This document shows, in pieces, positions 59,039-61,358 of a stretch of 64,000 bases of DNA (position 1 is its first letter; each line of letters starts with the position of its first letter). The notes below the pieces were generated by a model, which saw nothing but the letters and a program-made list of their open reading frames with translations, was not told where the DNA came from and did no database searches. The DNA comes from Nannocystis pusilla. Its GTDB lineage: Bacteria; Myxococcota_A; Polyangia; Nannocystales; Nannocystaceae. Location of the stretch: positions 157,990 through 221,989 of the forward strand of contig NZ_JAIRAU010000047.1 of the NCBI RefSeq assembly GCF_020073745.1, written 5' to 3'. The translations under genes were made by a program, and so were the position numbers.

Positions 59039-59943
59039 GACGGCAGCGGGTGGACCGGGCGCCACGGCGGCAAGGCGTCGTCCTCGTCGAGGAACTCGGA
59101 CTCGTCGGGCTCGACCCCGGCGCGGTAGCGGATGTCCTCCCAGGCCAGGCGCCAGCTGGTCGGGCGGGTGGCGTACACGTACTCGACGGTGGCCGGGCGC
59201 GCCGGCTCCTCGGGGCTGCCCGGCCACGCGGGCGTGTCGACGCGCTGGGCCTCGACCGTCAGCTCTGGCGCGCGGTTGCTGGCGACGAGGAAGTTGGGGC
59301 AGCCGTTCTGCACGTCGATCGGCACCCACACCCCGGTGATCGGCACGACCTCGCCGGTCGCGATCGTCGGCCCGTGCGGCGCGGGCAGCGGCTCGAGCTG
59401 CGGCGGGAAGCGGCGCGGGCGGAACGCCTCGGGTGGCCCTTCGGACAGGATACGCGTGTAGGTCCACTCGGCCCGCACCGTGAAGCGGATCCGCGTCGCC
59501 ATGTCGACCGCGCGCTCGGCCCACGCGTAGAGCCCCGTCGACGGCCGCAGCCGGCCGCCGTAGCCGAACTCGAACCACGGGCCGCCGCCCTCGAACGCCG
59601 GGCCCTCGATCTCGCACAGGAACGCCGCCCGCTCGAGCGCGTCGTAACCGCGGCTGGCCCGGTCGCCGAGCAGCTCGCCCGGCACCTCCTCGAACGCCGC
59701 GAGGTACGCGTACATGGTCTTCAGGACCTGTCTTGCGAAACCTGTCCTCGAGGGCGGCGCCTGGCGGGCCCACGCCTCGAACCCGCCGAGGAAGCCGCGC
59801 AGCAGCTCGGCGGCCCGGTTGGCGTAGGCCAGCGACGAGTAGCGGCGCAGGCACCAGAACACCTCGGCGCGCGTGGCGTCGGTGACGATCAGCTCGTCCG
59901 GATCGCACGGGCGCACGAGCGGCGCCGGGTAGTTCTCGGTCAT
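59035..59943 (-). CDS. Hypothetical protein (302 aa), candidate immunity/accessory for the upstream effector
   Basis: Start MTENYPAPLV with ATGA overlap to the effector stop. Good codon usage. No known motif. Confidence 0.55.
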   Translation of the reverse strand: MTENYPAPLVRPCDPDELIVTDATRAEVFWCLRRYSSLAYANRAAELLRGFLGGFEAWARQAPPSRTGFARQVLKTMYAYLAAFEEVPGELLGDRASRGYDALERAAFLCEIEGPAFEGGGPWFEFGYGGRLRPSTGLYAWAERAVDMATRIRFTVRAEWTYTRILSEGPPEAFRPRRFPPQLEPLPAPHGPTIATGEVVPITGVWVPIDVQNGCPNFLVASNRAPELTVEAQRVDTPAWPGSPEEPARPATVEYVYATRPTSWRLAWEDIRYRAGVEPDESEFLDEDDALPPWRPVHPLPS

Positions 59944-61358
59944 TGTCGCGGCTGCTCCTCCTGGCGGTTCGCGCGCGCCGTGGCCGCGGTGACGCGGGTG
60001 ACGGCGGTGATGCTGCCGGTCTTCTCGGCGCGCTCGGCCTCCTCGAGCAGGATGGCACGGTGCTCGGGCGTCGGCATGTTGACGCCGCGGTGATCGGTCC
60101 AGCCGGTCTGTTCGACCGGCGCTCGGCTGGCGTGCGGAGCGACCAGCGCGTTGTGCGGGTGGCGGAAGTCGATGAACAGCTGCTGCGCCCCGCCGTTGAG
60201 CACCTGGCCGAAGTCGGACCGCGACGCGTCGCGCTGGACCTGGCTGGCGACCGTGCCCTCCCACGCGCGCAGGGTCATCACGCTGCCGTCGGGGTTGTGC
60301 GGGATCGTGAACACGATGATCTCGCCGTTGTCGTTCCACGACTCGAGCACGGCGTAGTCCTCGCGCCACCGGCGGCCGCTGGTCGGCCGCGTGCGCGTCC
60401 AGCAGTCGCCGGTCATCGTGAACGGGCGATTGGCGCTGTCGTTGACGACGCGGTAGATCGTGTCGCCCGACTTGAGCTCGACCGGCCGCAGCGCGCCGCT
60501 GAAGGTCGAGATCGACTGATAGCGGCCGCCGGCCGTGTGTCGTCCGCGGCGCAGGTCGGGCCAGCCCGCGCGGTGGCGGTAGTCGGCGATCGTCGACGAG
60601 CGGTGCGGCAGCTCGTTGTCCAGCGGCAGCCGGCGGACGCTGACCAGCCCCGCCTCGGCCTCGCGCGTGCTGGCCCGCAGGCTCGACGGGATCGCGTTCC
60701 AGTCGCCCTGATAGAGGTGGCGCTGGATCAGCTTGAGGCGGTCGTTGAGGTCGCGGACCGCCCGCGGGATCATGCTGTCGGCGATCGCCAGCAGCTCGTT
60801 CATCCTGGTCTTGAGCTCGTCGAGGCGCCGCTTCATCGCGTCGGGCATGACCCACCGCGTGCGCTGCTTGACCCGGTCGATGACCGCGCCGACGCGGCGC
60901 ACGAGCTCGCGGAAGTGGGCCTGCAGGTTCGGGGTGTACTGCAGGAGATCGAGCTCGCGCATGAAGCGGACCGCGTCGCCGGCCCCGACCCGGTTCAGCA
61001 GCTGGATCGCCTCGCGGAGGATCCCCGGGTGCTGCGCCGCCTCCCTGCCGACCCGCATCAGCAGCTTGCCGACGCCCTTGATCGCCCCGCCCGCGACCGG
61101 GATCAGCGCGAGCAGGCCGATCACCAGCTCGACCCACTGCATCGGGTCCTCGCGCTTCTCGGGCTGGTCGGCCAGGCGGATCGTCACCGCCAGCAGGTCG
61201 CGCACGGCGGTGACGTCGCCGACGACCGGGATCATGCCGATGATCGCGTCGACGACGATCTGGCTGACCGTCTGCTGCTCGTTGAAGCCGCCGATCACCA
61301 GGCCCCAGATCCAGTCACCGGCGTCGGTGACGAGGCGCATGTACTCGCCGCCGCTCAT
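59940..61358 (-). CDS. Putative T6SS cargo effector: N-terminal hydrophobic (2-3 TM) region plus unknown ~370-aa C-terminal domain
   Basis: Start MSGGEYMRLV with ATGA overlap to the PAAR stop. Hydrophobic helices WIWGLVIGGF...IVVDAIIGMIPVVGDV and WVELVIGLLALIPVAGGAI. The upstream 840 codons of the 1315-aa ORF are an Arg-rich artefact. Confidence 0.6.
   Translation of the reverse strand: MSGGEYMRLVTDAGDWIWGLVIGGFNEQQTVSQIVVDAIIGMIPVVGDVTAVRDLLAVTIRLADQPEKREDPMQWVELVIGLLALIPVAGGAIKGVGKLLMRVGREAAQHPGILREAIQLLNRVGAGDAVRFMRELDLLQYTPNLQAHFRELVRRVGAVIDRVKQRTRWVMPDAMKRRLDELKTRMNELLAIADSMIPRAVRDLNDRLKLIQRHLYQGDWNAIPSSLRASTREAEAGLVSVRRLPLDNELPHRSSTIADYRHRAGWPDLRRGRHTAGGRYQSISTFSGALRPVELKSGDTIYRVVNDSANRPFTMTGDCWTRTRPTSGRRWREDYAVLESWNDNGEIIVFTIPHNPDGSVMTLRAWEGTVASQVQRDASRSDFGQVLNGGAQQLFIDFRHPHNALVAPHASRAPVEQTGWTDHRGVNMPTPEHRAILLEEAERAEKTGSITAVTRVTAATARANRQEEQPRQ

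Follow-up and report, generated by a model that had tools for sequence, protein, structure and literature searches.

The 64,000 nt window analyzed here is part of the Nannocystis pusilla contig NZ_JAIRAU010000047.1 (positions 157,990 to 221,989). It carries a type VI secretion system (T6SS) island in which a gene for a 472 aa protein lies between the genes for a PAAR protein and a 302 aa protein. What does this protein do, how is it brought to the secretion spike, and what protects the producer? A sequence-only reading had proposed an effector with an N-terminal membrane region and an unassigned C-terminal domain, possibly a new toxin family. The minus-strand gene (59940-61358) is real: its translation is exact and it is conserved in at least 166 homologues, down to ~33% identity (E ≤ 1e-64 for those listed), and in 134 species-representative genomes. 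The homologues are all annotated as hypothetical and show no Pfam domain in the effector part. Scans of the effector against Pfam, NCBIfam and PADLOC, as a whole protein and as three segments, and of 50 family members, returned nothing significant, only a sub-threshold similarity to DUF4112 (see later), so the earlier remark that the sequence holds no recognizable motif is borne out. The C-terminal ~190 aa are predicted to fold like the NAD(P)+ glycohydrolases (NADases) of the TNT and Tne types, and the system would belong to a known kind, in which a T6SS NADase effector has a membrane region and is paired with its own immunity protein.

Predicted fold of the C-terminal domain

A full-length AlphaFold model of the effector, built on a 50-sequence alignment, shows low confidence at residues 1-29, helices up to residue 216 and a confident alpha/beta domain at residues ~245-430, with predicted local distance difference test (pLDDT) values mostly between 85 and 98. 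The top Foldseek match to this model was the toxin domain of Tse6; matches to helical bundles (TolQ/ExbB and designed proteins) were rejected as noise. Since the search was swamped by bundles and yet topped by Tse6, residues 240-435 were modeled alone (29-sequence alignment), giving a pLDDT of 93.1 and a predicted template modeling (TM) score of 0.88. This model was compared with known structures by two methods, one of which was Foldseek. Tne2 (6b12) scored 10.7, with 110 of 119 residues superposed at 2.5 A, followed by Tse6 (4zv4; 8.6), Rhs1-CT of Serratia marcescens Db10 (6xtd; 7.8), an Aspergillus NADase (6.5), a Fusarium TNT-domain NADase (6.3) and TNT itself (3.8), while Tpt1/KptA, RES toxins, diphtheria toxin and classical ADP-ribosyltransferases (ARTs) scored 2-3.7. 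The Foldseek search of the C-terminal domain, a check suggested in the sequence-only reading, also ranked Tne2 best (E 3.7e-4, TM 0.64 on the target), then Tse6 (3e-3) and Rhs1-CT (6.8e-3), the remainder being noise. The top three matches represent the three structurally solved T6SS NADase families, and the predicted model has an ART-like palm fold that can be superposed on the solved NADase toxins. The domain is thus a new family in sequence, as had been supposed, but its predicted fold is that of known NADase toxins.

Conserved residues of the toxin domain

An exhaustive search with the toxin-domain profile returned 689 clusters at 50% identity, 374 of them at E 1e-10 or better, and 138 retrieved representatives were aligned to the profile for residue counts. 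Four residues occur in every sequence that covers them: R303 (133/133), W320 (134/134), R332 (135/135) and Q393 (136/136). Others are nearly as constant, namely W331 (131/135), A336 (133/135), V337 (133/136), G368 (135/138), Q373 (134/137), G389 (135/136) and G390 (133/136). Q393 lies on the strand after the invariant GG, and Q385 is invariant in the close family but lost in the wider set. Among the 138 representatives every Asp or Glu column stays below 85% conservation, and the catalytic Glu of ARTs (ExE/QxE) is absent. TNT-type NADases likewise lack this Glu; they have an essential aromatic residue (Tne2 F330, Tse6 W344, TNT F727, Rhs1-CT F1386) and a strictly conserved downstream Gln (Tne2 Q387, Tse6 Q413, TNT Q822, Rhs1-CT Q1452) (PMC6398120, PMC10539506), with 57-95 residues between the two in known NADases (PMC6398120). 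W320 and Q393 are 73 residues apart and, as a sequence pattern, would fit this aromatic/Gln pair. Candidate active-site residues are R303, W320 as an aromatic platform, R332, Q373, and Q393 as the Gln that may position the nicotinamide ribose.

The toxin core also ends other proteins. It was found at the end of a VgrG-PAAR fusion (P0187, 1141 aa), a single chain of VgrG, PAAR, helical and toxin parts, and of two VgrG DUF2345 fragments (P0184 and P0305). In P0216 (898 aa) an Ntox3 domain (PF15536) is combined with the toxin core at the C-terminus, and this may be a two-toxin protein. Since the core terminates unrelated carriers without the effector N-terminus, it behaves as a polymorphic-toxin cassette. 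Second copies occur at several loci. In Fibrobacteria (L004 / L013) a second core, at about +2627..+3076 from the effector start, is flanked by two Imm72 genes and has the look of an orphan toxin cassette; an Enterobacter locus (L059) has a second VgrG-like match followed by a second toxin-core match, and Holophaga foetida (L039) has two copies. Such duplications are typical of the dynamics of polymorphic-toxin loci.

Immunity protein and relation to Ntox48

The 302 aa gene downstream of the effector had been put forward as a candidate immunity gene, and its family assignment agrees with this. Its product matches Pfam Imm72 (E 9e-11; 42.2 bits, cut-off 25), falls just under the cut-off of Imm71 (26.5 bits, cut-off 27) and has, at residue 268, the sequence WEDIRY, an instance of the Imm72 WxDxRY motif. 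By tblastn, a homologue lies directly downstream of the effector in 67 of 85 loci, and a further nine loci have no downstream sequence. In Yersinia the core T6SS cluster includes an Imm72 gene after the effector, a Fibrobacteraceae locus with an Hcp-like fusion has three tandem Imm72 copies after the effector, and another Fibrobacteria locus has two. No hydrophobic segment, transmembrane segment or signal peptide was detected in the 302 aa protein; it should therefore be cytoplasmic, which fits a toxin with a cytoplasmic target. A sequence search of the PDB with this protein found no match, Tni2 (the immunity protein of Tne2) included.

Imm71 and Imm72 were tied specifically to the toxin Ntox48 by Zhang et al. 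2012, who described conserved R, [RK], Q and Q residues in Ntox48, predicted it to be an RNase of the BECR (barnase/EndoU/colicin E5-D/RelE) fold, and assigned the two immunity families to acidobacteria and beta-/gamma-proteobacteria (PMC3482391). The effector family answers this description, with R303, R332, Q373 and Q393, Imm71/72 downstream, and carriers in Holophaga, Burkholderiales and Enterobacterales. Because the residue signature and the taxa fit, the family is probably Ntox48, equated through the published description rather than the type sequence (Dickeya zeae gi:251789613). No member scanned gave a Pfam match to the toxin domain, the presence of an Ntox48 model in Pfam not having been checked, and a literature search for Ntox48, Imm71, Imm72 and PF15584 found Zhang et al. 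2012 and no later mention. If the two families are the same, the predicted ART fold contradicts the RNase assignment. The immunity partner, the R, [RK], Q, Q signature and the phyletic range that identify Ntox48 all count towards a BECR-fold RNase, yet the predicted fold speaks against it, no BECR-fold RNase is among the structural matches of the 240-435 model, and an RNase of this kind now seems highly improbable. The domains agree in partner, signature and taxa, and differ in fold: a BECR RNase as predicted in 2012, an ART/NADase-like model here. Re-assignment of Ntox48 is probable.

Membrane region, spacer and linker

The sequence-only reading counted two or three hydrophobic helices in the first ~100 aa. 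Two are clear, with hydropathy peaks above 2.0 near residues 43 and 84-87 (Kyte-Doolittle, 19-residue window), whereas the short WIWGLVIGGF stretch is weaker. No other part of the protein is as well conserved as this N-terminal region, which includes invariant D37, P44, G47, T50, R53, D54, R69, P87 and G90. A sub-threshold similarity to DUF4112 (PF13430) recurs in 48 of 50 members (best E 2e-4); it covers only a 22-residue IGxIPxxGD motif and, at 16-18.6 bits, does not reach the gathering score of 23.3 bits. Used alone as a query, the N-terminal region retrieved only fragments of its own family, and so nothing points to its serving other toxins as a carrier. The helical region that follows (modeled helices 107-124, 129-135, 138-166 and 173-216) matched no family in the segment scan; mean pLDDT over 10-residue blocks is 64-95, and 87-95 from about residue 131. 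The linker beyond it, with pLDDT below 50, contains an invariant TREAEA motif whose R232 and E235 occur in all 50 sequences, and such conservation in a seemingly disordered linker suggests a binding or processing site.

Could this membrane region itself be the weapon, killing by pore formation or depolarization in the manner of VasX, Tme or Ssp6, with the C-terminal domain as an accessory? The marked hydrophobicity of its two helices and the high conservation of their charged and Gly/Pro residues, its rank as the best conserved part of the effector and its faint similarity to DUF4112, a family of small membrane proteins, would all suit such a role. Immunity to pore-formers is normally membrane-bound, whereas the immunity protein here has neither a transmembrane segment nor a signal peptide; moreover, the toxin core stands alone on unrelated carriers as a self-sufficient cassette, and it is the toxin core that the Imm72 partner follows. 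Killing mainly through the N-terminus is therefore considered very unlikely.

A portable module as a probable docking adaptor

The PAAR protein has three canonical AARxxD motifs (residues 4, 37 and 67) and, at residues 115-203, a module of ~90 aa with the consensus HRYHDD..YEVEL.DG..G.LD..G.A..RVRYG.D. The longer effector homologues have an N-terminal extension homologous to this module (P0050, E 9e-23), the Hcp-like fusion P0089 carries it (E 1e-23), and it forms the extreme C-terminus of Yersinia VgrG (residues 756-849 of 850, E 5e-21). In 80 of 85 loci it immediately precedes the effector: at the C-terminus of VgrG in 32, on PAAR in five (Nannocystis only), fused in-frame to the effector in 18 (once, in P0089, behind the Hcp-like domain), and on a carrier that could not be assigned in 25, of which 14 are open reading frames (ORFs) that run off the contig. 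The module has no significant Pfam match, CarboxypepD_reg at E 0.17 being the sole hint. As it is either fused to the effector or adjoins it, gene-fusion logic suggests that it makes contact with the effector N-terminus and probably acts on the spike as a docking adaptor.

C-terminal extensions of spike proteins are known to dock cargo, as does the transthyretin-like domain of VgrG1 of enteroaggregative Escherichia coli (EAEC), which binds Tle1, and PAAR proteins with C-terminal extensions also occur. The module resembles these in being a small domain at the C-terminus of VgrG or PAAR, encoded just before the cargo effector; it differs in having no significant Pfam match and in occurring on four different carriers, the effector itself included.

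Distribution of the family

Carriers in the genome scan are Nannocystis, Polyangiaceae, Fibrobacterota, Holophaga foetida, Neisseriales, many Burkholderiales (Burkholderia, Paraburkholderia, Caldimonas, Aquabacterium, Variovorax) and, among Enterobacterales, Ewingella, Enterobacter, Buttiauxella, Rahnella, Pantoea, Cedecea and Dryocola. The homologue search added Yersinia mollaretii and Klebsiella pneumoniae. Megaplasmid records of Ralstonia solanacearum, 70 in all, also carry the gene; in one annotated region of this kind that was inspected, the effector gene is near T6SS-associated genes and is labeled hypothetical protein. Complete E. coli genomes contain no homologue of the Yersinia effector gene. 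The closest genome match is N. radixulma, whose effector is 92% identical at the protein level.

The effector gene is always beside spike components and its N-terminus is more conserved than its C-terminus, as might be expected of a structural or accessory T6SS part such as a membrane-anchored adaptor. A part of that kind hardly accords with a dedicated Imm72 partner that is often duplicated into arrays, with the predicted toxin fold, with a C-terminal domain that acts as a cassette on other carriers, or with the sporadic distribution of the family among T6SS-bearing genomes, and we give this explanation almost no credence.

Proposed mode of action

The reading we favor, and consider reasonably likely as a whole, is that of an antibacterial T6SS cargo effector with a membrane N-terminus, a helical spacer and linker, and a C-terminal domain that would hydrolyze NAD(P)+, docked through the module and held in check by the Imm71/72 protein. 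PAAR would cap the VgrG spike and the effector would dock non-covalently on the C-terminal ~90 aa module of PAAR; in other lineages, the same module would serve from the VgrG C-terminus, from behind an Hcp-like domain, or as a fusion to the effector. After firing, the two hydrophobic helices may insert in the target inner membrane and pass the toxin domain to the cytoplasm, by analogy with Tse6-type effectors, where it would hydrolyze NAD+ and NADP+ and so arrest growth. In the producer cytoplasm, the Imm71/Imm72 protein would block the toxin, as the conserved linkage of the two genes suggests. For NADase chemistry specifically, the predicted fold and the residue signature make a likely, if not a firm, case. 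The results proper are gene structure, conservation of the family and of single residues, similarity of predicted fold, and gene linkage; NADase chemistry, passage through the membrane, and the contacts of module with effector and of toxin with immunity protein are proposals.

Several points weigh against this reading. Structure-based identity to Tne2 is ~12%, and searches of PDB sequences with the family profiles A2 and the broadened A3, at E values up to 10, found no solved NADase, 6B12 included; the matches of the effector, A2 and A3 were chance ones only, such as lysozyme and geosmin synthase. W320 and Q393 are likened to Tne2 F330 and Q387 by sequence pattern and spacing. A pair of invariant arginines has not been described as typical of Tne1-3; it brings to mind the Arg-rich sites that Tpt1/KptA-like enzymes have. 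The only earlier prediction for the probably equivalent domain, Ntox48, was an RNase. The N-terminal part of the model is of low to moderate confidence, and both the membrane-translocation role of that part and the contact between module and effector rest on analogy and gene-fusion logic. The NADase assignment is itself a prediction from fold and residue pattern, and the ART fold also supports transferases. The C-terminal domain might accordingly use NAD+ as a donor, as an ADP-ribosyltransferase acting on protein, RNA or DNA (like Tre1, Tre23 or DarT) or as a Tpt1-like enzyme acting on phosphorylated nucleic-acid ends. The arginines would suit the latter; the ART catalytic Glu is missing and the Tpt1/KptA and classical ART structures scored far lower than the T6SS NADases, and we regard a transferase as unlikely. 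A broader proposal, a little less improbable but still unlikely, joins an undescribed delivery architecture (no PAAR or prePAAR in the effector, no Eag/DUF1795 gene adjoining it in the window, and a portable module on PAAR, VgrG, Hcp or the effector) to arginines that possibly give a non-hydrolytic chemistry, with a nucleic-acid or small-molecule acceptor or a signaling nucleotide as product.

Comparison with described toxins

Among described T6SS NADases the closest in predicted structure is Tne2, the C-terminal domain of Pseudomonas protegens PFL_6209 (PDB 6B12; immunity protein Tni2), which is a prePAAR-PAAR-transmembrane domain fusion with an Eag chaperone (PMC7773334). Here, by contrast, PAAR is a separate protein, a prePAAR motif is absent, and the neighboring ORFs scanned against Pfam and NCBIfam include no Eag/DUF1795 match. 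The toxin domain has ~80 residues more than that of Tne2, added as a GWPDL segment towards the N-terminus and a T.W segment towards the C-terminus; at ~12% identity no profile-to-sequence link exists between the two (A2 and A3 against the PDB), and the Imm71/72 immunity protein is unrelated to Tni2 by sequence. Tse6/Tne1 (P. aeruginosa PA0093, PDB 4ZV0/4ZV4, immunity Tsi6) differs in that the toxin domain here has no Pfam toxin match, including to the family built for the Tse6 toxin domain, that PAAR lies outside the effector polypeptide, and that the transmembrane region has a different, DUF4112-like conserved motif. The sequence-only reading had proposed a check for prePAAR and MIX motifs; the effector has no prePAAR (AARxxDxxxH), PAAR or MIX (hRxGhhYhh, shhPhR) motif.

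Rhs1-CT (6xtd) is an experimentally demonstrated NAD(P)+ glycohydrolase for which the name "Tne3" was proposed (PMC10539506). Together with the TNT-domain NADases (AfNADase, Fusarium NADase, M. tuberculosis TNT and the TNT-like Tne4), it is delivered in Rhs cages or by other means, has unrelated immunity proteins and shows no sequence-level similarity to the toxin domain here. Among the best 150 toxin-domain profile matches the longest is 1141 aa, and none is long enough for an Rhs protein. Tne5 (Pluralibacter gergoviae Rhs-CT, 2026) is an ART-fold domain with a K1392/E1482 pocket, Rhs, CDI or LXG carriers and a small immunity protein (PMC13285283); judged by that description it probably differs from the family here, which has an R-W-R-Q-Q signature and no conserved Lys or Glu. 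A Pantoea "Tne2-like" Rhs toxin was also considered as the identity of the effector and rejected. PIX effectors are orphan genes restricted to Enterobacterales (bioRxiv 10.1101/2023.07.16.549128); by this description they were rejected as well, the effector family being linked to VgrG or PAAR and found in several phyla.

What is new, then, is a family that by sequence is distinct from Tne1-Tne3 and the TNT-like enzymes and, going by the description of Tne5, is probably distinct from Tne5 also. It has a dedicated Imm71/72 partner and a PAAR-less, prePAAR-less architecture with a portable, putative docking module.

Gene calls and neighboring genes

The features of the island are listed in Table 1. 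With a GC content of ~72%, the window yields very long spurious ORFs, so that ORF length alone is no evidence for a gene: between 52000 and 64000 there are, for example, Arg/Ala/Gly-rich ORFs of 1223 and 906 aa, on either strand. The effector frame itself runs for 1315 codons without a stop (59940..63887), likewise as an artefact of the high GC content. Its true start is the ATG at 61358, since this is the start in 49 of 49 aligned homologues, overlaps the PAAR stop, and has upstream of it DNA that codes for PAAR and VgrG in another frame. Successive ATGA stop/start overlaps join the PAAR, effector, immunity and FHA-DUF4123 genes (61355-61358, 59940-59943 and 59035-59038), a sign that their translation may be tightly coupled; in Yersinia, too, the genes for VgrG and the effector (4452-7004 and 7001-8548 of that locus) overlap by 4 nt. 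As the VgrG frame has no stop up to base 64000 and its N. radixulma counterpart extends at least 62 aa further upstream, the ~50 missing N-terminal residues of VgrG are an artefact of the window end (63938-64000), not a truncation.

Table 1. Features of the T6SS island in the window, in order of transcription
Feature	Position	Strand	Evidence or remark
VgrG spike protein gene	61991-64000	-	Pfam Phage_GPD 8e-79, Gp5_trimer_C, Phage_base_V; TIGR03361 2e-174
PAAR protein gene, 206 aa	61355-61975	-	PAAR domain and C-terminal module
PAAR domain, ~residues 1-100 of PAAR protein	61676-61975	-	Pfam PAAR_motif 2.6e-22
Adaptor module, residues 115-203 of PAAR protein, ~90 aa	61367-61633	-	Homology to effector extensions and Yersinia VgrG C-terminus
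Effector gene, 472 aa	59940-61358	-	Between PAAR gene and 302 aa gene
Effector residues 1-100, membrane region with two hydrophobic helices	61059-61358	-	Hydropathy, invariant columns
Effector residues 101-216, long helical region	60711-61058	-	AlphaFold (AF2) full-length model
Effector residues 217-241, low-confidence linker	60636-60710	-	pLDDT <50
Effector residues 242-430, toxin domain, predicted ART-like TNT/Tne-type NAD(P)+ glycohydrolase fold	60069-60635	-	
Effector residues 431-472 and stop codon, poorly conserved tail	59940-60068	-	pLDDT <50 (432-472), variable in alignment
Immunity gene, 302 aa	59035-59943	-	Imm71-like N-terminus and Imm72 C-terminus; Pfam
FHA-like and DUF4123 adaptor/chaperone gene, 301 aa	58133-59038	-	Pfam DUF4123 1e-26; NCBIfam Tla1 (Tle1 chaperone) 4.7e-8
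134 aa ORF	57722-58126	-	Matches no family (Pfam, NCBIfam, PADLOC)
Tle1-like DUF2235 phospholipase effector	56420-57649	-	Pfam T6SS_Tle1-like_cat 7e-19

The last three genes of Table 1 (56420..59038) are a second cargo module of the same island. The FHA-like match of the DUF4123 gene is to Pfam Yop-YscD_cpl and is below threshold. Only Nannocystis and two Polyangiaceae loci have this gene beside a member of the effector family, and its product resembles Tla1, so a role as chaperone of the 472 aa effector was rejected; its partner is most likely the Tle1-like effector encoded downstream. After the Tle1-like gene no obvious immunity gene of the Tli type was seen, the next minus-strand gene being that of a HAMP/HATPase histidine kinase (55041-56021). 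Further along are a 558 aa HEAT-repeat protein (51945-53621, minus strand) and a 286 aa ORF (53554-54414, plus strand) with no Pfam family and a lipoprotein-like signal (LTAGAC), neither with an evident tie to the T6SS island.

Significance

If the fold is confirmed, it would overturn the only published prediction, that of an RNase, for the probably equivalent domain Ntox48. If the proposed activity is true, the family would add a further group of NADase effectors to the described Tne1-Tne5, with an immunity family (Imm71/Imm72) of its own, and VgrG-linked genes now called "hypothetical" would gain a function by the hundreds, in Ralstonia solanacearum, Burkholderia/Paraburkholderia, Klebsiella, Yersinia, Enterobacter, Pantoea, Fibrobacterota and myxobacteria. 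The 2024 atlas of Ralstonia T6SS lists several VgrG-linked toxin types whose targets are still unknown (PMC11481896), although their correspondence to the effector family is not established. The portable module is an experiment set up by nature, from which one could learn how a single cargo comes to be paired with PAAR, VgrG or Hcp; as a sequence marker, it could also help to find effectors.

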